NCBI GenBank assembly: GCA_030704665.1
Contig: JAUYID010000009.1
Location: 163 to 64,162 of the forward strand
Direction of reading: 5' to 3'
Origin: a bacterium
GTDB taxonomy: Bacteria; Patescibacteriota; Microgenomatia; Woykebacterales; RBG-16-39-9b
Length of the DNA stretch: 64,000 nt
Part shown: positions 10,186-60,175 of the stretch, one piece after another
Position numbering within the stretch: the first letter of the stretch is position 1
Layout of the letters: each line of letters begins with the position of its first letter
Notes under the pieces: model-generated
What the model saw: only the letters and a program-made list of their open reading frames with translations
Told to the model about the DNA's origin: nothing
Databases searched by the model: none
Translations under genes and position numbers: made by a program

Positions 10186-10225
10186 AAATGAAAAACGCCA
10201 GGGCATTTGTGGTGCTCTGGCGTTT
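10186..10225. terminator. Bidirectional intrinsic terminator
   Basis: Stem AACGCCAG-(15 nt loop)-CTGGCGTT flanked by T-runs on both strands. It lies between the FemAB gene (+) and the island small-ORF unit (-). Confidence 0.6.
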
Positions 10226-10255
10226 TCGGTAGTGTCGGTTCGACGCGGGTGTGCT

Positions 10256-10522
10256 TTAGGCGACCGCTGCGGCCTCTACACAGTGATTCGCACAGCGCGA
10301 GGTCTGCTCGTCGATGGGGCCGCCGTGGTTGCCGGGGTCGACGATGACGCACTGGCGTACCTTCTTCGAGAGCACAGGGCTGGTCCGGGACCTGGGTGGT
10401 GTCTGGCGCCGGTCGCGGTGCGACTGGCAGATCACCTTGTCGGGGTTCTCGGGATCCTGGAACATCTGACCCTTGTGGTCATACTTGTCCTTGATCCAGC
10501 AGTCATTCAGGTTGGCCTCCAC
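10256..10522 (-). CDS. Small (88 aa) cysteine-containing protein with strongly GC3-biased codon usage; unknown function
   Basis: GTG start 6 nt downstream of a perfect AGGAGG Shine-Dalgarno. Third codon positions are almost all G/C, unlike the surrounding genes. Five Cys (..DCW.., ..ICQSH.., ..RQCVIV.., ..RCANHC..). Confidence 0.55.
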   Translation of the reverse strand: MEANLNDCWIKDKYDHKGQMFQDPENPDKVICQSHRDRRQTPPRSRTSPVLSKKVRQCVIVDPGNHGGPIDEQTSRCANHCVEAAAVA

Positions 10523-10952
10523 GTTGATCCTCCTGTGAATTTCCCTTTGGGTAAAGGGAATCCTACCGATTTTTGGCCTTGAAAGCCAAAGATCTGGTTT
10601 CTCATCAAGGTGTTAGCCCTTTTTTGAGACGAAAAACCAGATCTCTGACTGCCAAAATATTTACTTTTTCCTAACAATCACAAATTTGGCCCTTAAGAAC
10701 CGGGGGAGTTTTGTATTCACCACCTTTCCTTTAAGTTCTGCCCCGTAATTGCTTACGGGCCAAGTTTGTGATTACTAGTGCGAGAGGGGAGGAACGGTGT
10801 AGACGCTTGCGTCCCATTCGTCCTCCCCTGCGCGCCGGCTCGCTATTCAGTTGTCGCTTCTGAGTGTCACGTCCAGGTCATGGTCGTAACTGCTCCTTTC
10901 GTGAACTGAGACTTCGTGACCTTGCGGTCGCGTCGTCGCCGGTCGGTTGGGT
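10523..10952 (-). ncRNA. About 430-nt GC-rich, multi-hairpin leader/spacer RNA between two small ORFs (possible riboswitch or cis-regulatory RNA)
   Basis: Nested perfect stems: AATCACAAATTTGGCCC/GGGCCAAGTTTGTGATT enclosing CCCGTAAttgcTTACGGG; GGGGAGGA...TCCTCCCC; CCCTTTgggtAAAGGG; CTTTGGCcttgaaaGCCAAAG; AGATCTGGTTT...AAACCAGATCT. Confidence 0.4.
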
Positions 10953-11123
10953 CTAGTCGTTGGTGTCGTACTCCCTGTCGCCGCTGCCTTCAGTGGCGAA
11001 GAGGACACCACGGAGAACCCGGGAGGAAGGCACGGACCTGACGTTTTCCGTCGGCCCCATGAACTTCCACTGTGTGCGAACGATGCCATCCGCACCACGC
11101 TCCGCTTTCATCTGCTGCATCAT
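10953..11123 (-). CDS. Candidate small ORF (56 aa, below the ORF-track cutoff) with GC3-rich codons
   Basis: ATGATG start with AGGAGG 13 nt upstream (long spacer). Codon usage is coding-like and GC3-rich. No homolog recognised. Confidence 0.3.
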   Translation of the reverse strand: MMQQMKAERGADGIVRTQWKFMGPTENVRSVPSSRVLRGVLFATEGSGDREYDTND

Positions 11124-11321
11124 TTGGCGGGTTTAACCTCCTGAACTAAGATCCTAACCGCGTTTGTCTCAAATTGCTCTGGGGCAAACGCCATAAAATC
11201 TAGTCCTATAGTTCTATATTTTCAAAGAACAAAAAGATCTCGCTCTTCTTCCCTGTATTCAACTTTTCTTGAATTATGTGTCTGTTTTCGCAAAGCTCAA
11301 CATCCACGTAATTACTTTGTA

Positions 11322-11350
11322 ATTATAGCACAAGACAGACCTATAGTCAA
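11322..11350 (-). promoter_or_regulatory. Near-perfect sigma70 promoter (TTGACT-N17-TATAAT) reading leftward into the GC-rich island
   Basis: Minus-strand reads cTTGACT-ataggtctgtcttgtgc-TATAAT, read from the sequence. It lies just downstream of the helicase-nuclease stop. Confidence 0.6.
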
Positions 11351-11375
11351 GTTGTGGGCTTTTGTTTTGTTTTGG

Positions 11376-14324
11376 TTACTTAGCAAGTGAAAAAGGACAA
11401 ATGGCGTTGTACGGACAATAAAAACAAGCTGGCTTTTGTCCAAAGTATTTGGGGTTAGCAGGAAAGTCATCTTTTTGTAAATTGGCACGAATTTCTTTAG
11501 CAACTTCAACTACCCTTTTCTCTGTTTGCTCGATGTCTTCCTCTTTCGGTGAGTAACCACCGACTAGTCCAGTTTCCAAATCGTAGATACCGACAAAATC
11601 TGGGACTTTTTTGTAATTTTTATAGTAGCCCAAAGTGTAAACCCTCAGCTGAATGCTTTCCTTGGCGTCTTTTTCCAGTTGCTCCTCACTACGATTTTCA
11701 GTGGATTTAAAATCGATGATTTTTACCTTGCCGTCTTTCTCGTCAACACGGTCGAAGCGGCCAGAGACCAAAACTTGTGTCTCCCCGTTTGTTAAGTTAA
11801 AACGGAACTCTTTCTCGACGAAACTTGGGGTGTCTTTTGTAGTCTTCTCTCGGGAGTAAAAACTAGTCAGTACGCGGCGGGCTTGCAAAAGACGTTTTTC
11901 CTCGTGCTCGGCAGTTAGAAAGCCCTCCGTCACCCAAGTGTTTTCTAAAACCTGCAAGCAAGAATCTAACTCAAGAAGTTTCCCGTTCATCTTCGAGCGG
12001 TAAAACTCCGCCACGGCGGCGTGGAGCGCAAAACCATAAACAATGGCGTGGTGGCGGAGTATCGGTAGACGCAGCACATGAGCGTAGCGGTATTTGTAGG
12101 CGCAAGTTTCATAGTCATCAATTGACCCCTGCGAAAGACGAATGATTTTGTTCTCCGCTGAGGGTAGTTTGTAGTTTTTCGGTTCGGAAAAAGCAAACTG
12201 CTCAATCTTTTCTTTTGGGTTTAGTTTCACAGCAACCGAGCCAGCACCAGGCAAGTCTAAGGCTTCAAGAATAAAGGGTGAAATTTTCTTGGCCCTGACT
12301 CCTCCAGTATCTTTCGACCAGGTGTAGTAGAGAAATCTTTTGGCGCGAGTGCTGCCAACATAAAAGAGCCGTCTTTCTTCTTGCAGGTGAAAATCTCCAG
12401 AAGGTAAAAGTTCCTTAATTAGCTCTTCTGGAATTGGAATGGCTTCTTTTCTTTCCCGGCTGGGAAAGCGGTCGGCAACCAAACCAACCATAAAAACCGC
12501 CTCAAACTCCAAACCTTTAGCCGAGTGCACCGTCATGACGTTGACTGCATCTTGATCGGGATCAAAGTCAGCAGTAGCCGGATCATCCCCGGCCAGGCGC
12601 ATTGCTTCGAGATAGTCCACGAAAACCCGGACTGATTCGTTTTGGGCCAGATCGATAAACTCAGCGATTTTGTCAAAAAACCTCGCAATATTCTGAATCT
12701 TTATTTCAGCTTCAACCCCACCTTCTCTTTCGAGACGCGTCAGGTAAGCAGTTTTCTGTAAATAAATATAGAGGACGCGGCCGACGTTTTCTTTTTGGGA
12801 AAGCTCGGCTGCCTCAGAGAGGTCTTTAATAAGTTTTTTGATGATTTCCCTTCCCTCAGCACTTATCTCAAGACCTTCCTCAGAATTGGCAACTACTATC
12901 TCGAAGACACTGCGCAGCGTTTTGTTTTTTCTCCTGGCCGTGTCCATACAGGCAATCGCATCCGGAACTGGAAGTTGATAAAGCTCACTGCTGACCAAAT
13001 TGTAAAGGTTAATACTGTCATCAAAGTTGGATATTGCTGTTAAAAACGAGATTAGCAGACGAATTTCTGGCTGGGTGTAAAGTCCAGAAGAACCAACGAA
13101 TTTGTGAGGGATTGCTTTTAAATTTAGGGCTCTCAAGAAAGAGTCTGCCTGGGAGTTAGCACGGACTAATATCGCAATGTCTTTGTAGTGAATTTTTTCC
13201 TTTTTAACCAGTTTTTGAATTTCTTTCACTACCTCTTCTGTTTCTTCAGTCAGAGTCGTACCACAAATTTCCTTCGGGCCTTCTCCTTTCTTCTCGGCAA
13301 CCGTTAAAAGTTTCTTGTCAATTTTGTTTTGCACTTCAAGCCGATCGGGATCGTTGTTTTTTATCAGCCGGTAGGAGGTGTCAAGAATTTCTTGGCTAGA
13401 ACGGTAGTTCTTGGTTAAAACCACTTGCTCTGCTTTTGCAAAATCCTCTTTAAACTTCATGATATTGGAAATTGCCGCTCCCCGAAATTTGTAAATACTC
13501 TGATCGTCATCACCAACAACACAAAGATTTTTGTGGGAGTTTGCTAGAAGCTTAACTAACTCGTTTTGTGAGTAGTTGGTGTCCTGATACTCATCAACAA
13601 GAATATATTTAAACTTTTCTTGATACTTTTGGAGAATTCTCGGCTTGGCTCTAAAAAGGTTGAGAGTCAGGCTGACTTGGTCACCGAAATCAAGCTTTCC
13701 CGCTTCCTTTTTAAACTGTTCGTACTTTTGATAAACTCGGACAAGCTCTTCCTGTCTTTTTATTTCTTGCAACCAGTCATCTTTTTCAAACTCCTCTGGT
13801 TGTTTCTTTTTCTTCAATTTCTCTACATAGACAGCAAAATCCTCAGCGCCGATGTCCTCATCTTTGCAACGACTGACGAATGTGAGAATTGCCTCAATAA
13901 ATTTCGTCGGATTCGAGAGTGGTCGGTAATAATCAAGATCAAAAGCGAAAAGATTCTGCTGGAAAAAAAGAACCTGTTGGGCTCGACTCAACACTTGGAA
14001 GTCGGGGGGTAAACCAAGATCCAAAGCATTTTCTCGCAAAACCCGGTCGCCGAAGGCGTGAAAAGTGCTGATCCAAGTATCCACATATCCATAAGGAACC
14101 AAGAGGTCGACTCTTTCTTCCATTTCGGAAGCAGCTTTTTCAGTAAAGGTAAGGGCGATAATTTCTGAAGGTTTAGCTAGTTTTTTTTCGATCAGGTAGG
14201 CGATGCGGCGGGTAATAACTGTGGTCTTGCCAGTACCAGCTCCGGCGATGATAAGCAGTGGGCCTTCTGTTGTTTCAACTGCTTGCTTCTGTTCTTTGTT
14301 TAATCCTTCGAGAATTGAGCTCAT
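11376..14324 (-). CDS. UvrD-like SF1 helicase fused to a C-terminal RecB/Cas4-like PD-(D/E)XK nuclease with a Cys cluster (AddA/AddB-like single polypeptide)
   Basis: N-terminal Walker A AGAGTGKTTVITRRIAYLI and DEYQDTN motifs. C-terminal CFYCPYNAICPF is typical of Fe-S-containing RecB-family nucleases. Confidence 0.75.
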   Translation of the reverse strand: MSSILEGLNKEQKQAVETTEGPLLIIAGAGTGKTTVITRRIAYLIEKKLAKPSEIIALTFTEKAASEMEERVDLLVPYGYVDTWISTFHAFGDRVLRENALDLGLPPDFQVLSRAQQVLFFQQNLFAFDLDYYRPLSNPTKFIEAILTFVSRCKDEDIGAEDFAVYVEKLKKKKQPEEFEKDDWLQEIKRQEELVRVYQKYEQFKKEAGKLDFGDQVSLTLNLFRAKPRILQKYQEKFKYILVDEYQDTNYSQNELVKLLANSHKNLCVVGDDDQSIYKFRGAAISNIMKFKEDFAKAEQVVLTKNYRSSQEILDTSYRLIKNNDPDRLEVQNKIDKKLLTVAEKKGEGPKEICGTTLTEETEEVVKEIQKLVKKEKIHYKDIAILVRANSQADSFLRALNLKAIPHKFVGSSGLYTQPEIRLLISFLTAISNFDDSINLYNLVSSELYQLPVPDAIACMDTARRKNKTLRSVFEIVVANSEEGLEISAEGREIIKKLIKDLSEAAELSQKENVGRVLYIYLQKTAYLTRLEREGGVEAEIKIQNIARFFDKIAEFIDLAQNESVRVFVDYLEAMRLAGDDPATADFDPDQDAVNVMTVHSAKGLEFEAVFMVGLVADRFPSRERKEAIPIPEELIKELLPSGDFHLQEERRLFYVGSTRAKRFLYYTWSKDTGGVRAKKISPFILEALDLPGAGSVAVKLNPKEKIEQFAFSEPKNYKLPSAENKIIRLSQGSIDDYETCAYKYRYAHVLRLPILRHHAIVYGFALHAAVAEFYRSKMNGKLLELDSCLQVLENTWVTEGFLTAEHEEKRLLQARRVLTSFYSREKTTKDTPSFVEKEFRFNLTNGETQVLVSGRFDRVDEKDGKVKIIDFKSTENRSEEQLEKDAKESIQLRVYTLGYYKNYKKVPDFVGIYDLETGLVGGYSPKEEDIEQTEKRVVEVAKEIRANLQKDDFPANPKYFGQKPACFYCPYNAICPFSLAK

Positions 14325-14384
14325 CGCTCAACCATTTTAGCACAGGACTACTCGTCTGTTGTTTTGGTCAAAGGGTAAGTTTAG

Positions 14385-15245
14385 TTAGCTTAAAAGCTTC
14401 AGGGTAGCGTGGTAGCTTTCTTTAATCACTTTTTCAGTTTTTTCGGGAGTGAAATCATAAGGGGAGAGCTCAAAACCACTCCTTGGTTCGATGGGGATGA
14501 TTTTTATTCTTGGGTAGAGTGCTTTTATTAATTCAACTTCATAACGCGTCGTCTGGTACTGGGCAATATCGCGACTGTCAATAATATTTTCCAAAAAGTT
14601 TTTTGGTTCTCTTTTTGTTTCGCCGGCATAGCCTGCGTTAACGGCATAAATTGTTCCGCACGTCTTTCGGGCCAGCTCGAAGAGAGGTAAATTGTCGGAA
14701 ACTCCTCCGTCAATATAAACTTTTTCTCCTATTCTAACTGGCTGAAAAATTCCCGGCGTGGCTGAGGAGGCAAGCAAGGCAGGAATGATCGGTCCTTGCC
14801 GAAACCAACTGTCGCTGCCAGTTTCAATGTTGGTAGCCCCGAGAGCTAAAGGAACCTTCAACTCAGAAAAATCTTTAAACGGTAGCCTTTCTTCCAAAAA
14901 TTTCTTGATTTTACCAGAGTCCCCTAAACTTTTTGTCCCAAAGCCGTGGGCCAAGAGCCTCGATAGCACCTGCCAAGGTGAAAGTCCAATGAAAGCGCGG
15001 TTGATAAAGGAAAAAATTACTTTTAAATCAGTAAAAGAGTTGTTCGTGAATGGGTCAAAAGCGTGGAAGGCAGCCACAAAAGCTCCGGCAGAAACCCCCA
15101 CGACGTGGGTTGGAGTTATTTTCTTTTCCAGAAAGGCGCGTAACACTCCAATGTGGACTACCCCACGGTTGCCTCCACCAGAATAAGAAATCCCGACAAT
15201 TTCTTCTCTGCAAAGGTTTTGATCAAGCTCGTGGATCTGCTTCAC
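14385..15245 (-). CDS. Patatin-like phospholipase
   Basis: GGGNRG oxyanion motif, GVSAGA (GxSxG) and DGGVSDNLP (catalytic Asp). Confidence 0.85.
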   Translation of the reverse strand: MKQIHELDQNLCREEIVGISYSGGGNRGVVHIGVLRAFLEKKITPTHVVGVSAGAFVAAFHAFDPFTNNSFTDLKVIFSFINRAFIGLSPWQVLSRLLAHGFGTKSLGDSGKIKKFLEERLPFKDFSELKVPLALGATNIETGSDSWFRQGPIIPALLASSATPGIFQPVRIGEKVYIDGGVSDNLPLFELARKTCGTIYAVNAGYAGETKREPKNFLENIIDSRDIAQYQTTRYEVELIKALYPRIKIIPIEPRSGFELSPYDFTPEKTEKVIKESYHATLKLLS

Positions 15246-15289
15246 CTTTTAATGGTAGAACTTTTTGCCAGTGGTTGGCAAACCGAAAA

Positions 15290-16348
15290 TTAAACCTCAG
15301 TAACTTCTTCGGCCTGGTCAAGGGGTAATGGTTCAGTTTCAAAGACGGCTTTTTTATCAGCAACTTTACCCGGCAAACCTTGCGCGTTTTCGATTTTGGA
15401 ATTCAGGGTCAGGAAACGGGAGTTCACCAAATCAGCAGTGTTTTTCGTATCATTAACGTGCTTGGTGAGAACTCGCAGTACATCCCCAAATTTTTCTGAA
15501 TCCCCTTTGATTGAACGTAAAGAGGCAAGTATGGTCCGCGCCCGCTCTTCAATCTTTTTGCCCTCAAAACTCATCAGAATCGCGCGCATGTACGCATAAA
15601 ACGTTGAGGGGGAAACTGGCAAAACTCTTTTGGTGTGGGCATACTCGGAAAGCTCCGGCATATTGGCCATGATTTCATAGTAAATTGGCTCGCTCGGTAC
15701 GTACATCAGAGCGTAATCAATCGTTCCTTCCTCAGGCAAGATATATTTTTTGGCAATATCGTCAATGTGTTTTTTTACATCCCGAGCGAAGTCTTTTTGA
15801 AACCCAGTTTTTTCTGCTTCAGTGTCGGCTCCCATCATCGCTTTGAAATTTTCCATCGGAAACTTTGAATCAATGGGGATGACACCGGAATCGGTTTTTA
15901 TGGCAGCGTCAACAATATCACCAGATCGAAACCGATACTGCAGATGAAAACTCTCTTTCGGCAGAAACTGTCCGAGTAGTTCGCGGAGAACTTGCTCCCC
16001 AATATTTCCCCGCAACTTCGGGCTGCGGAGAAAATCCTGCAAATCTTTCATGGAGCGACCAATTTCGCTCATCTGACCGACTTCTTTGCCGACCATACCG
16101 ATGATTTTGGCGGCGTTGTCGAGCCGCTCATTGATTGCTTTGTTGGTTGAGGTCAATTGCGACTGAAGGGTGTCAGTATTTTTGTCCAAAGAACTGCGCA
16201 TTTCTTTGAGCCACTCCATGAGGACCTTGGTACTTTCGTCATCGCTATCTTTACCTTTGAGTTCTTCGAGTTTTTTGAAGAAAAAGAAAAAGCCTGCAAC
16301 AATGACTCCACCAACAATAAGAATGAGGGTCTGGGTGTCCAAGTTCAT
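15290..16348 (-). CDS. rmuC: DNA recombination protein RmuC
   Basis: N-terminal TM helix, long coiled coil, and a conserved RmuC C-terminal region (PIDSKFP...YALMYVPSE). Confidence 0.7.
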   Translation of the reverse strand: MNLDTQTLILIVGGVIVAGFFFFFKKLEELKGKDSDDESTKVLMEWLKEMRSSLDKNTDTLQSQLTSTNKAINERLDNAAKIIGMVGKEVGQMSEIGRSMKDLQDFLRSPKLRGNIGEQVLRELLGQFLPKESFHLQYRFRSGDIVDAAIKTDSGVIPIDSKFPMENFKAMMGADTEAEKTGFQKDFARDVKKHIDDIAKKYILPEEGTIDYALMYVPSEPIYYEIMANMPELSEYAHTKRVLPVSPSTFYAYMRAILMSFEGKKIEERARTILASLRSIKGDSEKFGDVLRVLTKHVNDTKNTADLVNSRFLTLNSKIENAQGLPGKVADKKAVFETEPLPLDQAEEVTEV

Positions 16349-16395
16349 AATTAGGGCTATGTTAGCAGAACCACTTTACGTTGTAAAATAGTTTC

Positions 16396-16800
16396 ATGGG
16401 AGTTTTTCTTTTCGCTTTGCTGGTTGTCTTTTTGCTAGGCCTGTCAGCCTTGTGGTTTATTGGCAATAACCTTCCCCCCCTGGACTCTTCTGGCAATTTA
16501 CTGACCGCGAATCTGGTCTATTTTTTCCTAGCCCTTTTCGCTAGCCTTGCTGCAGGCTTGAGCTTGGTGCTATACTGCCTTAGCTTCGTTTTGGAGAGAA
16601 AAAAGGCTGAGACCCTGACGCGTTCTGAAAGAGCAAAATTCTTGATCAGAAAAGCACTACGTCGGGGTTTGGAACTAGCAGCCACTGGTTGCTTACTTTT
16701 CCTTCTGAAACTGTTGGGAATCTTTAACCCTGTGAACGCTGTGCTGATAGTTTTAATAATCAGCTTGATTGAAGTTTACTTTGTTAGCAACAAGAGTTGA
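16396..16800 (+). CDS. Polytopic membrane protein, unknown function
   Basis: Four predicted hydrophobic helices in 134 aa. Confidence 0.4.
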   Translation: MGVFLFALLVVFLLGLSALWFIGNNLPPLDSSGNLLTANLVYFFLALFASLAAGLSLVLYCLSFVLERKKAETLTRSERAKFLIRKALRRGLELAATGCLLFLLKLLGIFNPVNAVLIVLIISLIEVYFVSNKS

Positions 16801-18212
16801 AACAAATGACCAAAATAAAGAATTTTTTTCTGACAACTACCATCTATTATATCAACGACGTACCTCATATCGGGCACGCTTATACAACTATTGCTGCTGA
16901 TATTCTGGCCCGCTTCCATCGGCTTTTGGGTGAAAAAACCTTTTTTCTTACTGGTTTAGATGAGAACTCGCAAAAGACAGTTCTTGCTGCGGAAAAATCC
17001 GGCCAAGACTTGAGAACCTACACTGATGATTTGGCGAAAATCTGGGAAACAACTTGGAAAAAGCTTGGAATAACCAATGACGATTTCATCCGCACCACAC
17101 AGGTACGACACAAAAAGGTTGTCACTGATTTTTTTCAGAAAGTACTCGATAATGGGGACGTTTACAAGAGTAAGTATGAGGGTCTTTATTGCGTTGGTCA
17201 CGAAGCTTTTTTGAAAGAAAGTGATTTGGACGAAAACGGTTTTTGTCCGGATCACAAAACCAAGCCAGAACAAATCGCTGAAGAAAACTATTTTTTCCGT
17301 CTTTCCAAGTATCAAGAACAACTTTTGAAGTTTTATAAAGAAAATCCTGATTTTGTTTTACCCCACCAGCGTTTTAACGAAGTAGTGAAATTTGTTGAAT
17401 CTGGTCTGCAGGATATTTCGGTCACCCGAGCAAGTCAAAAATGGGGTATTCCGGCGCCAAACGACCCGAAACAGGTGATTTACGTTTGGTTTGACGCACT
17501 CATCAACTACCTTTCCGCTGAACCCCCCCTCTGGCCAGCTGATCTTCATCTTATAGGTAAAGACATCACTCGTTTTCACGCGGTTATTTGGCCGGCGATG
17601 CTACTCTCGGCTGGCTACCCACTGCCCAAGCAAATTTTTGCCCACGGTTTTTTTACTGTTGACGGAACGAAAATAAGTAAGTCTCTGGGCAACGCCATCG
17701 ACCCGGTCAAAATCTCGCAGGACTATGGCAACGACAGCCTCCGCTACTTTCTTTTTCATGAGTTTCCCTTTGGTAACGATGGTGATTTTTCTTTTGATCG
17801 TCTGAAAGAAGTTTACAATTCTGATCTTGCCAACGGCTTGGGAAATCTGGTTTCCCGAGTTGCGCGCTTGGCAGAAAATCTGTCTTTGCCCGGAGTAGAG
17901 TTTCCTGAAAAACCACTTCTCGACTCAGCTTTCCGAATTCACCTAGAAAATTTAGAGTTTTTGGAAGCTTTGGAATATGTTTGGGGGAAAATTCGCAAAA
18001 CTGACAAAGAGATTGAGAAAAGCAAGCCCTGGGAATTAGCTAAAGAAAACCCGGAGAAAGCAAAAGCCGCGGTAGAAAATTTAATTCGGCAAATTGTCGA
18101 AATTGACGAGCTTCTACTTTGTTTTCTTCCCGAAACAGCCGAAAAAATCAAAGACCAATTCTCCCAGGACAAAATAAAATCTTCCGCGCCGCTTTTTCCA
18201 AGGAGAGGCTAA
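16797..18212 (+). CDS. metG: Methionyl-tRNA synthetase
   Basis: HIGH-type motif PHIGHAYT and KMSKS-type KISKSLGN. Confidence 0.9.
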   Translation: MKQMTKIKNFFLTTTIYYINDVPHIGHAYTTIAADILARFHRLLGEKTFFLTGLDENSQKTVLAAEKSGQDLRTYTDDLAKIWETTWKKLGITNDDFIRTTQVRHKKVVTDFFQKVLDNGDVYKSKYEGLYCVGHEAFLKESDLDENGFCPDHKTKPEQIAEENYFFRLSKYQEQLLKFYKENPDFVLPHQRFNEVVKFVESGLQDISVTRASQKWGIPAPNDPKQVIYVWFDALINYLSAEPPLWPADLHLIGKDITRFHAVIWPAMLLSAGYPLPKQIFAHGFFTVDGTKISKSLGNAIDPVKISQDYGNDSLRYFLFHEFPFGNDGDFSFDRLKEVYNSDLANGLGNLVSRVARLAENLSLPGVEFPEKPLLDSAFRIHLENLEFLEALEYVWGKIRKTDKEIEKSKPWELAKENPEKAKAAVENLIRQIVEIDELLLCFLPETAEKIKDQFSQDKIKSSAPLFPRRG

Positions 18213-18985: not shown

Positions 18986-18989
18986 GGAG

Positions 18990-20474: not shown

Positions 20475-20499
20475 TGTATAATTTATCTCGAGGCTGCCT

Positions 20500-22357: not shown

Positions 22358-22358
22358 A

Positions 22359-26754: not shown

Positions 26755-26756
26755 AA

Positions 26757-28847: not shown

Positions 28848-28859
28848 GATCGTCTCCTT

Positions 28860-46486: not shown

Positions 46487-46685
46487 TTCGGGGCTTAGTA
46501 TACTGAGAGAAAGAATTAGTGTCAACTTTGCTTAAATTTTCTGAGACAAAAATTATATAGAAAGCAATAGTTTTATTGTCTTGCCAACCTTTGTTTCCGG
46601 CGCCTATGATAGTAGAACTTTTGAGGGCTTCCCTTTCTTAGGGTGAATTTCAAAATTTAAATCTAGCCTCTGCCTAAAGGAACTA

Positions 46686-53236: not shown

Positions 53237-55334
53237 TTGGCTTCATGATTTCCCCGCCTAATTGAACTTGGGTAATGTCGAATTCCAAACTATCTTTTTC
53301 AAGCTCAATATTGTAAGTCCCGTTGGGTAGAGGAGTGGAGATCACAAATTGACCAATTTTGTTGGATTTTAGAGCCCGAACCGGCTCCCCCTTCTCATCT
53401 TTGATAATCATGACTGCTCCAGAAACGAGTAAACCCCCCTTGTCGCGAACAATCCCATTGACGACATTGGGGAAGGAAACTTTGGGCGGAATCATTTTTC
53501 CAAAAGCCGGCTGGGCAGCTACAACATTCCTCCCCCGCGCTTTCTTGGCCCTTTCCTTCTCGGCGAGAGCCTTTACTTCCTCTGCAATTTTGGCTTTCTG
53601 AACTACCAATTCTTTTTGTCTTTCGGTCGCCGCTTCCCCTTCGTTTCTGGCCTTTAGCTCACTTTCCCGAATTTTTTTGTCGATCTGCTCGTTGAGAAGG
53701 TGAACTTCGGCCGCAATTCTCTGTTTTTCACCTTGATATTGAAGCCCCTCGTATTGAACCATGATATCTGCTTGGTGCTCCAAATTTTTTAAAGTATCAG
53801 ACAACTTGTCCCGCTCCCCTTCGGAGAGCTGCTCTCGGCCCAGTTTGGCAAGTTTGCCTTCTGCCACAATGGTATCTTTTTGAATTTCTTGGCGATCGGC
53901 GCGGTGGGCCAAAACTTTCGGATCGACCGGAGTTTTAACGGGTTCGGCAATTTGGGCCGCCTGTTTTTCTGAAATTATTACCGGGTTGTTGATGACAAGA
54001 GGTGGCTGGGTGGGGCCCATTTTACTCATATCGAGGTTCTTGGATGTTTCTTCCAGGTTGCCCGGGAGTTTGATTACTTCTTGACCAGTCTTTTCTTCAG
54101 AAGCCTCGAGTTTAACTTCTTTTGGCTCGGTTTGTTTTTCTTCAACCACTTTAGGAGGGCTTGGAGGTACTAGTTGCGGGTTTTCCCCGCTTGGTTTTTC
54201 GACAGCCTCAGTTTCTAGGGCCGTTTTGGTAGGTTGTGGGCTTTCGGGGGCTTTAACGGCGGGTTCTTTGACCGCCTCAACACTTGTACTAGCTAGCGCG
54301 CTTACTGGGTTCTGTTCAGCTACTTCGGGAAGTAATTCTTTTTGAGCCGGGATATTTATTGGGGTATAAGAAGCCTTGGTCAGCTCAGAGGGTTTTTTTG
54401 AAAGCTCAATCAGTTTCTCGGCCAAAGGCGGTAGTTTGGCTAGGGACTCAAGTGGCGAGCCCTTGGTTTCGGTCGAGGGCCCGAGCGGACGCACTTCAGA
54501 GACCACAACCTCCTTGGGCTCAAATTTAATTTTTTGACTTGGAGGGGTCGGCTCTGCCTTGAGAGTTGGCGGCAGGCTAATTTGTTTGTTAGGTTGGGGC
54601 AACTCGCGCCCTTCTTCTTTGGGGGGTGCTGCTGGGAGAGGGTTTGGTGTCTTGGTTTCGGGTTGAGCGGAAGCGCCCAGCCCCGCAGTTGGGTTTTTGG
54701 TCTCCTCGAGCCGTGGTTCAGGCGTTTTTGTTGCCGGCAAGCTACCAACAACTGGCTTGGGAGCTGGCTGGTTGACGGCGACGGTCTTGGCGGAAACAGG
54801 AAGAGCCTGAGAAGCTGCTTGAGCCACGGCCTGTTTTTGGTTTCGTTGACTCAAAAGACTGCGGGCAGCCTGGGTAGTTTTGGTTAGCTCGGAAAGCAGT
54901 TTGCTGCGGTCAGCCAAAGGGGAAATCTGACTTTTGAAGCTTGGGGCCGGGACGCCCAAGTAGATAGGAGCTGTTTGCGGCTCGAGTAGGGGCCTGGCAG
55001 CGGCCTGAACTTGGGAACCAATTCCAGCCTGCAAGCTCTCCGGAAACTCAAAGACACGCTCACCGCGAACGGGCAAAATTGCTTGGCCATTAAGAGCAAC
55101 AGGACGAAGGTAACGAGGTTGGCTATTGTTGACACCTCTGACATAGACTAGCTTCCGACCCATCTTGACGGTGGCGACGGGGTTGAAGCCAACTTCGGAG
55201 GCAATTTTTGGTTTATCCTCTTTAGTCTCACTGATAGTCCGCGCCTTTTCGGTCGGTGAAAAACGATGCAGGGTGGGGATGTGAACAAAGGTACGCAGCT
55301 TTGCCGCAGCTTTGGTCAGAACCTCATTGCTCAT
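53217..55334 (-). CDS. Pro/Thr/Lys-rich T4SS-associated protein with coiled coil and a C-terminal carboxypeptidase-regulatory-like beta domain
   Basis: Long low-complexity P/T/K-rich spacer, coiled-coil KERAKKARG region, and C-terminal VISTPLPNGTYNIELEKD beta-sandwich-like end. Confidence 0.4.
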   Translation of the reverse strand: MSNEVLTKAAAKLRTFVHIPTLHRFSPTEKARTISETKEDKPKIASEVGFNPVATVKMGRKLVYVRGVNNSQPRYLRPVALNGQAILPVRGERVFEFPESLQAGIGSQVQAAARPLLEPQTAPIYLGVPAPSFKSQISPLADRSKLLSELTKTTQAARSLLSQRNQKQAVAQAASQALPVSAKTVAVNQPAPKPVVGSLPATKTPEPRLEETKNPTAGLGASAQPETKTPNPLPAAPPKEEGRELPQPNKQISLPPTLKAEPTPPSQKIKFEPKEVVVSEVRPLGPSTETKGSPLESLAKLPPLAEKLIELSKKPSELTKASYTPINIPAQKELLPEVAEQNPVSALASTSVEAVKEPAVKAPESPQPTKTALETEAVEKPSGENPQLVPPSPPKVVEEKQTEPKEVKLEASEEKTGQEVIKLPGNLEETSKNLDMSKMGPTQPPLVINNPVIISEKQAAQIAEPVKTPVDPKVLAHRADRQEIQKDTIVAEGKLAKLGREQLSEGERDKLSDTLKNLEHQADIMVQYEGLQYQGEKQRIAAEVHLLNEQIDKKIRESELKARNEGEAATERQKELVVQKAKIAEEVKALAEKERAKKARGRNVVAAQPAFGKMIPPKVSFPNVVNGIVRDKGGLLVSGAVMIIKDEKGEPVRALKSNKIGQFVISTPLPNGTYNIELEKDSLEFDITQVQLGGEIMKPIEIKAI

Positions 55335-55939
55335 TTAGAAGCCTCCAAATCATCTGCGCCAAGAGGGGGTAAAACTTGTCCTGGTGGGGAAGATTTAATT
55401 TCTGAGGTCATCTGGGCGACTTGTTGGCTGAGCTGCCCTAGTCTTTTTTCCTCTTCCACATCAAGAGCCGATTTGGCTCCGAGGTGGTGGTGAGAAACCA
55501 AATACTGGTTAAGTTTGGCCCTGTCGGAGTGGGCAATTGGCTTTGGTCCTTGCTGATGTTGGAGATAGATGGAAAACTCAGGAGCTAAGAAGCCGAGCTC
55601 AACTGGCTCTTTGCGCCAAACTCGCTGGGTTGGAGTATAGACGGAGCGGACAAAAGCAACAAGCCAACGATCGAAAGGAATGTCGTTTATCGGCAAAAAA
55701 GCAAGCGCCAAGCCCAGAGGACCGATTAGAAAGATGAGTAAAAAGCGAACTATTATATACAGAGGTATGAGATAAATAACAAAGCAGAGAATACCCGCAG
55801 CCGCCAAATAACCAAACTGACGAATGGTCAGAAAACCAACTAATTTAAATTCAAACCCAGTTATGTTCTGCGGGACAGGATGAGACTGCATACTTTTTTG
55901 TTTAAAACTCGGGAAGCGAGTTTTTCCTTGCTTTGTCAC
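55331..55939 (-). CDS. VirB3/PrgI-like small membrane T4SS protein
   Basis: Two adjacent TM helices (FGYLAAAGILCFVIYLIPLYIIVRFLLIFLIGPLGLALAF). Immediately upstream of the other T4SS genes. Confidence 0.4.
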   Translation of the reverse strand: MTKQGKTRFPSFKQKSMQSHPVPQNITGFEFKLVGFLTIRQFGYLAAAGILCFVIYLIPLYIIVRFLLIFLIGPLGLALAFLPINDIPFDRWLVAFVRSVYTPTQRVWRKEPVELGFLAPEFSIYLQHQQGPKPIAHSDRAKLNQYLVSHHHLGAKSALDVEEEKRLGQLSQQVAQMTSEIKSSPPGQVLPPLGADDLEASK

Positions 55940-56168
55940 TTCTTTCGGCGAAAAAATCTCGATAAATCAGGCCAAAAGAGACATTAAGTAAGTTAATTGC
56001 TTCTCTCTTCTTTTGATCGCAAGCATAATTATGCTGTTCTTTAGCCTCAAAAGCAAGTGCTTCAAAGTAGTTCTAACTAGCTATAAAGATAACCCTGATT
56101 CGGGCCTTTTCCGCAGCAAAATTAGCGAAGAAAGTCTTTAGGCCTTCGAGGTCCCAAGCTCGAAGAGC

Positions 56169-56202
56169 GCAAGCTTTTCTTGATTTAGCTCTCAAGAAAA
56201 GC
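56169..56202. promoter_or_regulatory. Perfect 13-bp palindrome (AAGCTTTTCTTGA-N8-TCAAGAAAAGCTT) abutting the -35 of a consensus promoter: candidate operator
   Basis: Read directly from the sequence; ends 6 nt before the -35 TTGACT. Confidence 0.45.
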
Positions 56203-56208
56203 TTATAG

Positions 56209-56237
56209 TCTTGACTTTTAGCTTCAGTCGAGTTATA
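56209..56237 (+). promoter_or_regulatory. Near-perfect sigma70 promoter TTGACT-N17-TATAAT
   Basis: TTGACT-tttagcttcagtcgagt-TATAAT on the plus strand. Confidence 0.6.
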
Positions 56238-56243
56238 ATAGCT

Positions 56244-56418
56244 CAAACTAAAAACCGGCTAAGGTAGACCCCGGAAAAATAGTCTGACAGAAATGAAAAA
56301 GACATTTAAGCTTCAGAAACAGAAAGCTAGAGCCAATCCCCAGCAATGGGGTCTTTCGGCATAAGGCTGAAAGAACGGGCTCTGGCAATCAGCAATGATC
56401 ACCAGAGCCCGTTTTTTG
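56244..56418 (+). ncRNA. About 170-nt promoter-to-terminator unit (small RNA, or a 34-aa Lys-rich peptide MKKTFKLQKQKARANPSNGVFRHKAERTGSGNQQ)
   Basis: Consensus promoter upstream. Intrinsic terminator GGGCTCTGG-15nt-CCAGAGCCC plus TTTTTT at 56375-56418. Internal hairpin CCCCAgcaaTGGGG. The ORF lacks a convincing SD and runs into the terminator stem. Confidence 0.4.
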
Positions 56419-56710
56419 TTGAGTAGCCCTTTTACAATTAAAGAGTTAGAAAATTGTTCACCTCAAAGTGCGCGAGAGCCTTGGGGGAAAGATGGAAGCT
56501 GAGCTTAGAAAATGGCCTCTAGTAGCGAAAAAAGAGCTAAACTAGTTGTAATAGGCAGCCTAGAGCTTGCTTTTATCTTCCCCCCAATGCGCTGTTGCTT
56601 TTATGCACTCGCTTGGGGATCAACTTCACTTACACGTCTGGCTTTCAGGCTAGTACGTTTTGATCCACAACAACGAGTTGCATAGCAACAAGAGCAGCAC
56701 TGGGAGGTGC

Positions 56711-59700
56711 AAAATGACAGACGGTATCGATGACGCAACTCCTGATGAGGGACTAACACCTCAGGAAGAAGCGATTCTCCGTGGAAAGGAAGCTGCTTGG
56801 CTGACTGACTACGGCTATCTAGCTGGCGAGGGGACCCCCTACGCCAACGACAATCAGCATCTGCTTCACCTCGGGTGGAGGGACAGCAGTAATAACTACG
56901 ATCGAGTCATGAGTATGGAAATGATTCAGCGTCGGTACCACTCGAAGCTGGTCTTTTTCGCAGTAACTCGAGAAGCCAAGTTCTCAGTACAGCAGCAGTT
57001 TCGTACTACTGAAGGGGGAATCCAACGCCCCTTGTATGTCTCGTCCGAGTGGTATGTCTGGGAGTACAAGAAAACTGACGGACCCACACATGACGAAAAG
57101 GGTTGGCCTCTCAAAAGAGAAAGCAGACGGGTTCCAGCACAGGCAACGGATCAAGGGGCTTTTAGGGAGCCTAGTACTACTTTGGACATTCAGAAGGCCG
57201 ATAGGGACCGTGATGGCACTCCGATAGTCGCCACCGGTTCTGTATTCATGGGGTGGAAGTACAACTTCCAGCCTGTGGGCGACGCCGACATTCGGGCCGA
57301 AGACAGCAAGGTCTACGCACGAGTTCAGAGGATCTGGAACAATACCGGCAAGCTACCGAGTGTACTTCAGACGGGTGAGGAGAAGACGATTAAGAACGAC
57401 CTTCTCCAGCTTCTGAAGGACCTTAAAGAATTGACCGGTGAGGACTGGAGTACCAAGGGCAATCCCAACGAGGCCAATCGCCGTGTCATTATGGAGCGGC
57501 GCTGGATACTCGGCCGGAACCACCCCGAGACTTACCAACAGCATCTTCGGGTGCTGGGTGGCAAGATCCCAGAGGAGTACTTCTTCGCTGAGTACAACGA
57601 GCTCCGCCGGCAGAAGGCCCGCAATATGGACCGCCCGCTGGAAGAGCAGGATCGTGTTCGCGATCCCTACTCGGCCAGCCTGAAACACCTGCTCGACAAG
57701 CGGGTCGACGGACGGATCGTTTACGCGGGAACTCCAGAGTATGATGAGGCTCGCGGTAGACTGATTCCCGAGATCAGGATCACTCTGCTCAATGACCACG
57801 GCCTCTCAACCTTGGCCGAGTACAATATCACGCAGAAGTACCTGATCAACGGCTACACTTTCGAAAGAACCTGGGAGTGGCAGCAGAACATGCGGGCGAA
57901 GGCTCTTCAACGAGCTAGCCTCAGGGTTAAGCTGCCGAAGAGTCACCCACTCCACTTGTCCCCGAACGCAGTGGGGGATTTTGTGGACGATTATCCTGAA
58001 GGTCGAACCTTCTGGATAACTCCATCCTGCAGCGACGCTTTTGTACGTTCCTTGGCAAATCAGATTCGCACCGATTACCGGGAAGAGCTTCCGGAAGGTG
58101 TCGAATTCACTCGGGACGAAGGCGGTCGTGAAGTGATGCGTCGGCTCCCGTCATTGCGAAACCAAGGCGGGGAAGAGGAGAAGCAGTTCTCCGATGAGTT
58201 GAACGCAGATATCCTCACCGCCACGTCAATAACGACCCTGGCGGATAAGAAGTGCCGTAACGTCAACGCCTTCGCGCATATTGTGAAGAGCTGTCGTATC
58301 ACTCGGGACGGTCAAGCTGACTTTACCGAGGCGAAAGAGGTACGTCTCACGATCGAGGAGGATCGTGATAAGCAGAGGCGTAATGAAGATCAAGTACAAA
58401 CTCGAACTCTAACCATGGCTTATGATGCTGGTCAGCTCGACCAGAATCGCCCTGGCCAGGCACGAGATCGAGGAATTGGTGGTCCGCGCAGCGCAGAGCC
58501 GTGGATTGCTGATCCAAAGTTCCGCCTCAATTGGTGTCTCTTGTACAAGCAGAGGCGAGACCCGAGAACAGGCAAGATTCTGCGCAACGATCTAGGCAAC
58601 CCTCTTTGGGAGCCACGCTACAGCTCAGAGGATGGGGCTCGTGCCTCGGTAATGATACAGAGAGCACTTGCGAACCCAGCCACAGATGTTGTGGTACCGA
58701 CTCAAGAAGAGGCCGTCAAGAAGGCCTGGAAGAAGCGCTGCGACGAGAACCTCTTCGTGGCCCAGTTCGTTCAGGATCCCTACTACGACCGGCGGCCCGC
58801 GGACACGGCCATCGCTACCAACCTGATCGGTCGCAAGACCAGTATCACGGGTGGGGTGAAGCTAAATATTACGGGGGCCACCAAGGCTGCCAACGGCAAG
58901 GGCTACACCTTCGACGATCTTCTCAAGGATCTGCCGGGGCTACGTAACTACTTGCCGAACGACTACGATCAGAACGGAGCCTTCGATGGCAAGCTCGATG
59001 AGGAATTTTACATCCTTCAACTCGAGCTCATGTTCTACATCGACCCTCGCTATGTTGCCAAGATTCACAAGGGTTCGTGGAGTTGGTATCTCTTCCACGA
59101 GCAGAACATGCGTGTCACACGCATCAGCGAGGACCTGCGTGCCACCCGAGCCAATTTCCTGCGTCAGCAGGACGTTGCCTGGGGGATGTGGGCTGGACAA
59201 TCGCCGAAGGGGATGGTGCTACACTGTGACGAGACGCTTAGCACCGACATCCACAACGGGATTTTCAACCCGTTGCCGGACTTGCAGAAGGCTGCCAACG
59301 GCTACCCCGGCATTCACATGCCGAACGTAATCATGGTGGCTCCAGATGGGCAGAAGTGGAACCTTCAGGACCGGCCCAGGAAAGACTTCGAAGATGCTTA
59401 CACACCGCTCAACTGGAGAGCTCACGAGCATATCGGCAGAGGAGAGGCAGACGACACCTTCATTGGTTACGCGACTGCTTTCTCGACCAGTACCTTCACC
59501 GGACTAGCTCACTCTGGCCTGGGGCGGCGTCTGGGTGATACAGAGGCGGAAACCTATCTCGTTCGTGCTCAGGGTAGGCAGTCTTGGGTGAATGGAGTAG
59601 TTCCGGCTCTCAAGTCCCACGCTGAGGCAGTCTCAGCCTTTGGGACCGGTGACCTGAACGAGAATGATTGGATGAGGTCTGCTCTTGATAGCGGTAAGGT

Positions 59701-60085
59701 GACTGGCGAGTGGTTTAAGTCCACAGGACAGTTGTTCTGGAAGGGCGAGAAGGTTCAGGAGGTCAAGATCCTCCACACTGCCGAATACATCAAGGACCAC
59801 TCCTACCCAGACAATCCTCGCGATGCTCACGAGCTGGCGAAGATGATCTGGGAACGCCGTATTGACGGGAAAGGTTACCGCTATGGTTGGGAAGAGGTTG
59901 AGGCGGAAGCAATACGGATTCTCTTTGGTGGTCAGCGACCGGCTCAGTTGAACCCGCATGGCCGCTGGAGGCTGAACGCGATCTACTGGGCTTACCGAAC
60001 TACCCGCCATTTCCGTGCGGTCTCACTGACCAGCGAGGAGGAGAGGAGTCACGAACGGCCGGTAATCCATTTAGCAGCGGCTTAG
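56711..60085 (+). CDS. Large (1124 aa) GC-rich orphan protein of no recognisable family, inserted inside the T4SS locus
   Basis: ATG with GGGAGGTG 4 nt upstream (the ORF-track start at 56660 is 17 codons earlier, without an RBS). Consistent GC-rich codon usage over 3.4 kb. No P-loop, HExxH, TM or signal peptide seen. Trp/Tyr/Arg/Asp-rich. Confidence 0.6.
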   Translation, partial: KMTDGIDDATPDEGLTPQEEAILRGKEAAWLTDYGYLAGEGTPYANDNQHLLHLGWRDSSNNYDRVMSMEMIQRRYHSKLVFFAVTREAKFSVQQQFRTTEGGIQRPLYVSSEWYVWEYKKTDGPTHDEKGWPLKRESRRVPAQATDQGAFREPSTTLDIQKADRDRDGTPIVATGSVFMGWKYNFQPVGDADIRAEDSKVYARVQRIWNNTGKLPSVLQTGEEKTIKNDLLQLLKDLKELTGEDWSTKGNPNEANRRVIMERRWILGRNHPETYQQHLRVLGGKIPEEYFFAEYNELRRQKARNMDRPLEEQDRVRDPYSASLKHLLDKRVDGRIVYAGTPEYDEARGRLIPEIRITLLNDHGLSTLAEYNITQKYLINGYTFERTWEWQQNMRAKALQRASLRVKLPKSHPLHLSPNAVGDFVDDYPEGRTFWITPSCSDAFVRSLANQIRTDYREELPEGVEFTRDEGGREVMRRLPSLRNQGGEEEKQFSDELNADILTATSITTLADKKCRNVNAFAHIVKSCRITRDGQADFTEAKEVRLTIEEDRDKQRRNEDQVQTRTLTMAYDAGQLDQNRPGQARDRGIGGPRSAEPWIADPKFRLNWCLLYKQRRDPRTGKILRNDLGNPLWEPRYSSEDGARASVMIQRALANPATDVVVPTQEEAVKKAWKKRCDENLFVAQFVQDPYYDRRPADTAIATNLIGRKTSITGGVKLNITGATKAANGKGYTFDDLLKDLPGLRNYLPNDYDQNGAFDGKLDEEFYILQLELMFYIDPRYVAKIHKGSWSWYLFHEQNMRVTRISEDLRATRANFLRQQDVAWGMWAGQSPKGMVLHCDETLSTDIHNGIFNPLPDLQKAANGYPGIHMPNVIMVAPDGQKWNLQDRPRKDFEDAYTPLNWRAHEHIGRGEADDTFIGYATAFSTSTFTGLAHSGLGRRLGDTEAETYLVRAQGRQSWVNGVVPALKSHAEAVSAFGTGDLNENDWMRSALDSGKVTGEWFKSTGQLFWKGEKVQEVKILHTAEYIKDHSYPDNPRDAHELAKMIWERRIDGKGYRYGWEEVEAEAIRILFGGQRPAQLNPHGRWRLNAIYWAYRTTRHFRAVSLTSEEERSHERPVIHLAAA

Positions 60086-60175
60086 GTTAGAAGGGAAGAG
60101 TATGTAAGGAGAGAGAAGGGTCCTCGGACAAAAGCACACTACAAGTGCGTCCGGGGGCCTTTTTCTTTGGCTAAA

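Follow-up and report, generated by a model that had tools for sequence, protein, structure and literature searches.

Gene content of the window and its GC-rich islands

The 64,000-nt stretch of contig JAUYID010000009.1 analysed here, referred to throughout as the window, has the gene content of a small-genome bacterium from the candidate phyla radiation (CPR, or Patescibacteria), and the closest named relatives of its valyl-tRNA synthetase (ValRS) are Ca. Woykebacteria. Its housekeeping genes include rpsT, PilO, Pgk/Tpi, two UvrD-type helicases, FemAB, GroES/GroEL, TsaD, ValRS and L25, together with an rpmH-rnpA-yidC block, a dnaA-dnaN-recF block and a VirB4/TraC-like/PrgI/T4SS-pilin cluster resembling a type IV secretion system (T4SS). 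Set among these genes are four islands rich in guanine plus cytosine (GC), each behind a consensus-type sigma-70 promoter and numbered here by position, a further GC-rich island that encodes a retron-type reverse transcriptase (RT), and a GC-rich segment at the tail of a tRNA-Cys gene (Table 1). The idea that the islands might be native and present at the same sites in all relatives holds in part: relatives have promoters at the same sites in three of the four cases, at least island 3 and the RT island are polymorphic for presence among relatives, and the island interiors differ. We think it probable, though well short of certain, that the islands are conserved strong-promoter/attenuator slots that hold exchangeable genes from a GC-rich pool.

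Table 1 Features of the islands, in window coordinates unless a relative is named (ORF, open reading frame; GC3, GC content at third codon positions; RBS, ribosome-binding site; sRNA, small RNA)
Feature	Position	Strand	Remarks
Island 1 promoter	11322-11350	-	TTGACT-N17-TATAAT, TG extended -10
Island 1 transcription unit	10191-11315	-	~1.1 kb; AT-rich 5′ end, then GC-rich structured stretch; identical in Logan contig L001
Island 1 ORF, 56 aa	10953-11123	-	GC3 0.77; AGGAGG upstream; no family match
Island 1 long hairpin	near 10583-10650	-	between the ORFs
Island 1 ORF, 88 aa	10256-10522	-	GC3 0.84; AGGAGG RBS; GTG start
Island 1 terminator	10191-10222	-	hairpin and T-run
tRNA-tail segment	26738-26895	+	19 nt of the tRNA-Cys 3′ end, TCCGGTCCTCGCCTCCAAA, perfectly repeated in direct orientation at 26738-26756 and 26877-26895
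RT island	27747-29040	-	retron-type RT (27747-28847, 366 aa, GC3 0.61) and GC-rich upstream RNA, between M23 peptidase and GroEL genes
Island 2 promoter	35089-35117	-	TTGACA-N17-TATAAT, 12/12; perfect copy at the NYN/TsaD site in L089, L090 and L171
Island 2 promoter-proximal non-coding RNA	34750-35082	-	first ~60 nt and scattered motifs conserved in relatives
Island 2 ORF, 33 aa	34518-34619	-	MFHNKNGPAL...; GC3 0.88; diverged member of small-peptide family
Island 2 terminator	34159-34226	-	GAGAGGGCCACCC...GGGTGGCTTTCTC-T5; conserved in L089 and L090
Tandem peptide ORFs, relatives	L090 ~7200-7760; L089 ~3600-4070	-	
Island 3 promoter	41240-41268	-	TTGACT-N17-TATAAT, TG extended -10; L089 orthologue TTGACA-N17-TAGAAT
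Island 3 resident leader/sRNA	41100-41233	-	~130 nt; long hairpin ending in terminator (41102-41122)
Island 3 payload	39335-41095	-	five small ORFs, GC3 0.65-0.69; terminal terminator near 39341-39385
Island 3 ORF, 47 aa	40848-40991	-	basic
Island 3 ORF, 76 aa	40582-40812	-	hydrophobic
Island 3 ORF, 72 aa	40329-40547	-	
Island 3 ORF, 94 aa	39997-40281	-	
Island 3 ORF, 166 aa	39431-39931	-	
Junction hairpin	40564-40584	-	TAG-CCTGGC-GTGAA-GCCAGAG; TAG stop fused to 5-bp stem, 5-nt loop, then RBS; 17-21 nt; second strict copy 40311-40331; variants near 39960-39985 and 40820-40845
Island 4 promoter	56211-56239	+	TTGACT-N17-TATAAT; L173 TTGACA-N17-TATAAT, L003 TTGACT-N17-TACAAT, L086 TTGACA-N17-TAGAAT
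Island 4 attenuator	56329-56417	+	three-way junction: P1 56329-56334/56376-56385, P2 56338-56351, P3 56352-56374
Island 4 second leader element	56480-56600	+	GGGGAAAGATGGAA ... GTAGCGAAAAAAGAGCTAAAC ... CTTCCCCC, also given as GGGGAAAGATGGAA ... GTAGCGAAAAAAGAGCYAAAC ... CTTCCCCC; between attenuator and RBS; L173 7755-7870, L003 9735-9860
Island 4 payload, p1123	56714-60085	+	1123 aa; GC 0.554, GC3 0.64; PrgI/675-aa slot of T4SS-like cluster

Orthologous loci came from metagenomes (ERZ27247320, SRR22452306 and ERZ23486227/SRR8451930/GCA_004196275.1; at least four independent environmental datasets); a ValRS scan of genome contigs returned mainly distant phyla and a single Patescibacteria match, L009 (GC 0.30), too distant for use. 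Around ValRS the window was compared with L089 and L090, whose ValRS is 79% and 81% identical to its own, and with the more distant L171. For island 4 the relatives are L003/L004, L086/L087/L088 (including GCA_004196275.1) and L173, carrying the slot proteins P0002, P0005 and P0011, respectively; by ValRS identity the host of P0011 is a close relative (79%) and the host of P0005 the most distant of the slot-4 hosts (69%). Two island proteins, those of 1123 and 166 aa, have identical counterparts in the hypothetical proteins Q8P13_00465 and Q8P13_00365 of an NCBI entry labelled 'MAG: bacterium' (MAG, metagenome-assembled genome).

Promoter sequences and base composition

The string TTGACW-N17-TATAAT occurs exactly four times in the 64 kb and not once in 100 dinucleotide-preserving shuffles, so the four consensus promoters reported in the first-pass annotation are real; three of its positions were right, and the fourth, 2 nt off, is corrected in Table 1. 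Its further statement that native promoters are weaker does not hold uniformly. One of the four (island 2) reached 12/12 in a scored sigma-70 scan of the window, and the other three scored 11/12, tied with three further sites; groES (TTGACA-N17-TAAAAT, 31211-31239) and the rpmH/rnpA operon (TTGACA-N17-TATACT, 46497-46525) have promoters of 11/12, and the M23 peptidase gene has TTGACT-N17-TAGAAT. Since host genes use the same promoter grammar, the 'identical format' of the island promoters is the sigma-70 consensus and no private signature. All four lie within AT-rich, host-like sequence. Perfect-format promoters were rare (3) and GC-rich islets uncommon at ~60 distant CPR UvrD-like loci.

Within ~1 kb after each of the four promoters lies a GC-rich block (0.52-0.57, with most of the window at 0.42-0.46); in 1-kb steps, GC content is 0.52 at 10.0-11.0 kb, 0.52 at 34-35 kb, 0.53-0.57 at 39-41 kb and 0.52-0.56 at 56.5-60.5 kb. 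The higher GC and GC3 claimed for the islands were confirmed quantitatively, with GC3 at 0.64-0.85 in island ORFs against 0.36-0.53 in more than 40 flanking genes (median ~0.45), and the island ORFs show the codon periodicity of genuine coding sequence. High expression was ruled out as the cause of the elevated GC3, because GroEL and GroES have values of only 0.49 and 0.44. A GC-rich block at 54-55.5 kb was rejected as an island: its GC excess is at first codon positions and its GC3 is 0.49. The islands do occupy, as had been noticed for several of them, intergenic gaps of housekeeping neighbourhoods, namely FemAB/UvrD-like (island 1), NYN/TsaD (island 2), ValRS/L25 (island 3), PrgI/675-aa (island 4) and M23/GroEL (the RT island).

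A conserved leader and a variable gene in the T4SS-like cluster

The island 4 protein, p1123, has 16 relatives among 1.84 billion representative proteins, three of which (P0002, P0005 and P0011) are encoded at the equivalent position, with PrgI on one side and a membrane protein of ~600-800 aa on the other, in the dnaA-dnaN-recF-VirB4-TraC-like-PrgI cluster of related CPR genomes. In each case the slot gene is richer in GC than its own genome (0.56-0.60 versus ~0.45, 0.53-0.57 versus ~0.41 and 0.53-0.60 versus ~0.43) and a consensus-type promoter stands at the orthologous position. Between the window and L173, PrgI, the promoter, the attenuator (73%) and the second leader element (79%) align at the DNA level, but the ORF does not; between the window and L003, neighbouring T4SS proteins are 58-80% identical, whereas the slot proteins are 34% identical. 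In protein comparisons p1123 scored 358 bits with P0002, 343 with P0004, 339 with P0005 and 42 with P0011. Since the protein of a close relative is matched at just 42 bits and that of a distant one (P0005) at 339, the slot-4 proteins disagree with the host tree. The most economical explanation would be that a xenologue has replaced the ORF within a regulatory frame that is conserved, saturating divergence in situ being the alternative.

P0004 is encoded elsewhere, on a contig (L085) of uniformly 57-63% GC where its neighbours are a Replic_Relax protein, a TraG/TrwB-like coupling protein and an SNF2 helicase, a neighbourhood that, judged by these genes, is a conjugative-element context. The two settings of the family, the CPR T4SS cluster and the relaxase/coupling-protein neighbourhood, argue that it is functionally tied to type IV secretion. 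A PDB sequence search with p1123 returned nothing, the AlphaFold2 model built from a 15-sequence alignment was poor (pLDDT 54.5, pTM 0.34) and a Foldseek search of that model against PDB gave nothing at E ≤ 0.001; for these reasons we claim no fold-based function. The terminator hairpins that follow p1123 (60114-60171) and GroEL (29070-29099) each give a weak match, at the level of chance, to the Rfam family ctRNA_p42d (26 bits against a gathering threshold of 50) and are probably strong bidirectional terminators.

Transcription from the island 4 promoter would first yield an RNA of ~170 nt that ends in an intrinsic terminator, GGGCTCTGG ... CCAGAGCCC-T6 (56376-56411, with the T-run at 56412-56417). 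An upstream segment, (C)YAGAGCY, is a copy of the terminator 3′ strand and can pair with GGGCTCTGG, closing a three-way junction round two hairpins, so that the 3′ strand of P1 is common to the terminator. In the predicted folds of all four genomes (the window, L173, L003 and L086), the transcript cut after GGGCTCTGG adopts the P1-P2-P3 junction and the full-length transcript forms the terminator with P2 and P3 kept; P1 and the terminator are predicted to be mutually exclusive in every one. P2 and P3 vary in sequence yet can still pair, with double changes, possibly compensatory, in 9 of 25 consensus pairs among four sequences only, and fold z-scores of the leader range from -4 to -6.4. These models suggest that strong initiation at island 4 is probably gated by conditional read-through. 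The second conserved leader element, which the same four genomes have, is without a match in Rfam.

A hairpin-punctuated operon between ValRS and L25

Island 3 also has a resident leader. Its terminator 3′ strand is matched by an upstream competitor segment, TAGTTACTT (41209-41217), and the leader folds with z = -6.7 in the window and -4.0 in L089. In L089 the same promoter and RNA stand directly against the ValRS stop codon, in a ValRS-L25 gap of 173 nt that holds no GC-rich DNA and no payload; in L171 the gap is 13 nt and promoter, leader and payload are all missing; and in L090 a GC-rich operon of other content (GC 0.54-0.57) comes after the 3′ end of the leader RNA. Common to the window operon and this one are a small basic first ORF (...RRGNGKQ* and ...NGNGKYH*), a protein with the pattern MF(Q/K)xFSRP...VNNFV...VQWLQ that is alignable at 71% nucleotide identity, and a terminal terminator module. 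An alpha/beta-hydrolase and two other ORFs are specific to L090, and the 76-aa hydrophobic, 94-aa and 166-aa proteins are specific to the window; the 166-aa protein found no homologue but itself among 5.8 billion proteins.

A single consensus promoter stands ahead of island 3 and no other strong promoter lies within it. Its ORFs are separated by copies of a junction hairpin whose stem is joined to the TAG stop codon (Table 1). Four copies occur in the L090 payload. By chance, none would be expected; the hairpin was found nowhere else in the window and not in viral contigs, and a degenerate pattern gave one isolated match among 172 other loci. A direct repeat of 27 nt, imperfect (22/27, 14 nt exact), pairs the leader terminator (41101-41127) with the 3′ coding end of ValRS (39230-39256); its copies flank the payload, the two sequences are adjacent in payload-free L089, and the repeat may be a recombination footprint or a coincidence.

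Structured RNAs and small peptides in islands 2 and 1

The NYN/TsaD gap holds a GC-rich block of 0.85-1.2 kb and a perfect promoter in the window, L089, L090 and L171. The interior of island 2 is unalignable by blastn between the window and its relatives, and an Rfam search of the RNA returned nothing at E ≤ 10. In the relatives, small ORFs in tandem lie under a second perfect promoter that has a CCCATAGT box ahead of it; they encode members of a peptide family with the motif M-x-x-x-R-S-G-P-S-F...(V/I)VAL...D-x-GG-x3-5(-C)*, in which a terminal Cys is frequent; NCBIfam has no match for the family, and its double-glycine-like C-terminal motif suggests secreted precursors or precursors resembling ribosomally synthesized and post-translationally modified peptides. 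The window retains one diverged member and a degenerate second promoter. Island 2 is a conserved two-part locus of structured RNA and small peptides, not a recent insertion. Its promoter is overlapped by another, TTGTCA-N16-TACAAT with a TG extended -10 (35111-35138, plus strand), which faces TsaD, making a back-to-back pair.

The unit of island 1 folds as a whole at -437 kcal/mol, a raw energy, the shuffle control being limited to ≤1000 nt, and Rfam gave no real match to it. Its 88-aa ORF, which matches nothing in Pfam, PHROGs, PADLOC or NCBIfam, carries a Cys in its C-terminus, following a GG motif. For the corresponding site in relatives, a UvrD-like scan of metagenome contigs gave only homologues of ≤57% identity.

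Stable structured RNAs such as rRNA, RNase P RNA and tmRNA are GC-rich even in AT-rich genomes and are strongly transcribed, and islands 1 and 2 might likewise be mainly RNA genes of this kind in which the small ORFs are incidental. Some 700-800 nt of each island hold no convincing ORF and are heavily base-paired, the 5′ motifs and the perfect promoter are conserved in four genomes, and in L171 the upstream RNA of island 2 ends at a terminator of its own, ahead of the second perfect promoter. We nevertheless regard this account as doubtful, because no Rfam family was matched even at E ≤ 10, the interior is poorly conserved between close relatives, unlike that of essential stable RNAs, and the small ORFs have a GC3 periodicity of 0.77-0.88 and ribosome-binding sites, with a peptide family that recurs in relatives.

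Codon usage and database matches of the island contents

Pairwise blastn detected no similarity between islands. The proposal to analyse the islands as a set was productive. Their ORFs have a common, non-host codon usage. Correlations of relative synonymous codon usage (RSCU) were 0.70 between p1123 and the island 3 ORFs, 0.82 between p1123 and the L003 slot-4 gene, and 0.78 between the island 3 ORFs and the L003 slot-4 gene; the small set of island 1 and 2 ORFs correlated at 0.37-0.55 with the other payload sets. Payload sets correlated at 0.55-0.72 with the genes of the high-GC contig L085 and at -0.15 to 0.23 with host genes, and host genes of the window correlated at 0.78 with those of L003. 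Amino-acid usage is shifted as well, with Lys falling from 7.7% to 2.5-5.2% and Arg rising from 4.0% to 5.9-11%. Codon and amino-acid composition thus favour an origin of the payloads in a GC-richer pool.

The RT apart, island proteins had no match in Pfam, PHROGs, PADLOC or NCBIfam, and searches of viral contigs and of phage and plasmid collections, IMG/VR and INPHARED among them, found nothing related to p1123, to P0004, to the 166-aa protein or to the junction hairpin. Rfam searches with the entire window and with islands 1 and 2, at gathering and at lax E-value thresholds and covering RNase P, tmRNA, 6S, SRP, GOLLD, ROOL and OLE among other families, passed tRNA-Cys alone, the rest being chance hairpin matches; ARAGORN detected no tmRNA in the window.

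Other features of the window and of related loci

The RT island has no consensus promoter and is absent at the M23/GroEL junction of L090, where the gap is 57 nt. In comparison with retrons, its RT gives hits to models of the retron clade (PADLOC RT_other, 3e-52; retron 'outgroup', 2e-51; NCBIfam retron St85, 4e-44), and a GC-rich, putatively structured RNA lies upstream; points of difference are that the score to the St85 model is below the curated NCBIfam cut-off (151 against 235 bits) and the lack of a consensus promoter. No effector ORF was seen next to the RT and msr/msd were not identified, and by RT score the island appears retron-like. The 19-nt repeats of the tRNA-Cys 3′ end bracket ~120 nt of GC-rich hairpins and look like the att-type scar of an integrative element.

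ValRS (36777-39272) is 819 aa long in the window genome and its two nearest relatives, where CPR homologues mostly have ~700 aa and align locally, at best, over just ~51% of it; length and coverage together indicate a lineage-specific internal insertion of roughly 100 aa. Past the right end of the window, contig L002 (3131-6615) encodes an array of six or more small T4SS_pilin (PF18895) paralogues, located downstream of the T4SS-like cluster and alternating with genes for PMT-family glycosyltransferases, and L086 and L173 have the same arrangement. L171 has a stretch (301-900) of GC 0.50-0.53 against ~0.40 near a 99-aa ORF and a Ser_hydrolase gene; GC-rich islets of this kind may be common in the lineage.

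Proposed model and alternative explanations

In the model that we favour, the four sigma-70-type promoters would be resident features of the lineage that mark fixed expression slots. In at least two of these slots the promoter would first transcribe a conserved, relatively AT-rich leader RNA ending in an intrinsic terminator, whose stem is predicted to compete with an alternative upstream pairing (the three-way junction of island 4, the upstream competitor of island 3). Given this competition, strong initiation would be gated by conditional read-through. Behind the leader would lie GC-rich payloads, namely small ORFs and structured RNA (islands 1 and 2), an operon of five ORFs punctuated by hairpins (island 3) and a 1123-aa protein (island 4), drawn from a separate GC-richer gene pool common to conjugative-type elements. 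From one close relative to the next, payloads would be exchanged, acquired or lost, whereas the ends formed by promoter, leader and terminator remain; the most probable mechanism is recombination through these conserved ends. In blastn, flanks and slot ends align at 70-79% and interiors do not. A fuller version, which we put forward only tentatively, is that the slots are 'expression sockets' of consensus promoter and terminator-gated leader into which promoterless GC-rich genes of a conjugative-element-like pool are repeatedly swapped without an integrase, that the novel stop-fused hairpin of one socket delimits cassettes and serves as a site of exchange, RNA processing or both, and that the T4SS socket carries a hypervariable, secreted effector of ~1000 aa under a new riboswitch-like attenuator.

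Several points weigh against the favoured model. No integrase or recombinase was found among the ~27 window ORFs scanned with Pfam (mainly those flanking islands) or in the Pfam tables of related loci. No donor genome was identified. Promoter strength and read-through are predictions from sequence. Island 1 is placed in the model by analogy only, and the motif-level similarity kept in the interior of island 2 may mean that it is a fast-evolving resident non-coding RNA, not a replaced payload. Finally, the same slots are GC-rich in four lineages, which selection or GC-biased gene conversion at hotspots could also produce.

This last point speaks for an alternative interpretation in which the payloads are inherited vertically and evolve very fast, their GC content arising in situ through GC-biased gene conversion at recombination hotspots or through selection for transcripts that are GC-rich, structured and stable. 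The conserved slot ends fit it, as do the large non-coding, strongly folded parts of islands 1 and 2 and the fact that the GC-rich gene is the fastest-evolving gene of the T4SS cluster. We consider it rather unlikely because the island 4 protein is incongruent with the host tree (42 versus 339-343 bits), because the gene content of island 3 differs outright between close relatives and because the shift affects amino-acid usage and not synonymous sites alone; moreover, since L085 is uniformly GC-rich, a GC-rich home for the p1123 family exists.

An improbable alternative is that each island is a self-contained cassette, recently acquired from a high-GC donor together with its own promoter and terminator. 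Such units are known from phages, whose morons are autonomous promoter-gene-terminator units of deviant GC between conserved genes, and here too every island has a promoter and a terminator, contrasts in composition with its flanks and has non-host codon usage, and island 3 and the RT island are polymorphic for presence. However, the promoters belong to the AT-rich, host-like part of each locus, the promoter and leader of island 3 are still there in L089, which has no payload, and the promoters and leaders of islands 2 and 4 keep the 70-79% nucleotide identity of the flanks next to interiors that cannot be aligned. Simple recent insertion is also not supported for islands 2 and 4, which occupy the same slot in genomes whose housekeeping proteins are only 55-81% identical. 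For islands 2-4 the own-promoter reading is therefore largely refuted. The related proposal of a single family of mobile cassettes, each carrying a strong promoter, fails because the islands share no sequence; no mobility genes lie among the ORFs scanned, and the island 2 and 4 promoters are conserved in three to four genomes. Of the proposed acquisition from a high-GC source, the part concerning the payloads is supported and the part concerning the promoters, which are resident and conserved, is not.

An engineered construct or assembly chimera, suggested by the TTGACA-N17-TATAAT format of synthetic consensus promoters and by sharp composition breaks, can be set aside: Logan contigs from run SRR13727534, made with another assembler, are 100% identical to the window over 16.8 kb (6786-23565) and 13.8 kb (50176-64000), across islands 1 and 4 and their junctions (although that run may represent the same reads as the MAG, so that the match excludes assembler artefacts and not sample-level ones), the NCBI MAG contig is 938 kb long, metagenomes from other samples contain GC-rich slots and orthologues of the promoters, with three of the four at matching sites, and no vector, marker or known-part matches were found.

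Relation to known systems and implications

The phenomenon is natural and partly explicable. In Enterobacteria, RfaH/ops (JUMPStart) operons are variable clusters of atypical composition, such as O-antigen and capsule loci, that sit at fixed loci behind a conserved leader. The slots are alike in having a variable payload of atypical composition at a fixed locus, behind a conserved promoter and a leader predicted to govern read-through, and probably exchanged through conserved flanks; they differ in having RNA terminator/antiterminator leaders with no evident ops element or RfaH dependence, payloads that are GC-rich instead of AT-rich and genes outside sugar pathways. Phage morons share the promoter and terminator round genes of deviant composition in gaps between conserved neighbours, but here there are no PHROG matches, no viral relatives and only housekeeping neighbours, and promoter and leader outlive the payload. 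Island 3 is like an integron array in its single upstream promoter, its short ORFs split by a repeated hairpin and its varying content between close relatives, and unlike one in that no IntI was found among the window ORFs scanned or at the relatives' loci, the junction is 17-21 nt long as against attC sites of 57-141 nt, and no attI was recognised.

The island 4 leader resembles attenuating riboswitches in its aptamer-like three-way-junction fold, predicted in four genomes, in which the P1 3′ strand is the terminator 5′ strand; it matches no Rfam family, is followed by ~300 nt of extra conserved leader and precedes a gene that is not metabolic. Genomic islands at the 3′ ends of tRNA or sRNA genes have parallels in the island 3 payload, which directly follows the leader terminator and has a 27-nt imperfect repeat at its far end, and in the 19-nt tRNA-Cys repeat; they differ in that no integrase was found here, the second copy of the island 3 repeat lies inside the ValRS coding end, and islands 2 and 4 lack repeats. 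Of the features used to define classical genomic islands, deviant composition and codon usage are present, and an integrase with flanking repeats at a tRNA or sRNA 3′ end was not found. The slots would combine hotspot gene replacement and leader-gated foreign operons, both of known kinds, with candidate new RNA elements; a literature search did not find such an architecture of promoter slots with GC-rich genes described for CPR bacteria.

CPR bacteria, whose tiny genomes are usually viewed as streamlined, depend on interactions with host cells. The 0.94-Mb genome studied here keeps several fixed, apparently RNA-gated sites with predicted strong promoters and contents of foreign composition, one of them inside a type IV secretion-like cluster of a type implicated in the episymbiotic lifestyle. 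We caution against the interpretation, in annotating such genomes, that a promoter next to DNA of deviant GC came with the insert, as even a perfect promoter need not have done so. For specialists in CPR bacteria and in RNA, three items should be of interest: the conserved sockets of promoter and attenuator, the variable operon punctuated by hairpins and the protein of the T4SS slot that conflicts with the host tree. If the model holds, it would add two or three candidate new classes of regulatory RNA, provide a case in which cassettes are exchanged although no integrase can be recognised and offer a handle on the fast-evolving host-interaction repertoire of CPR bacteria.

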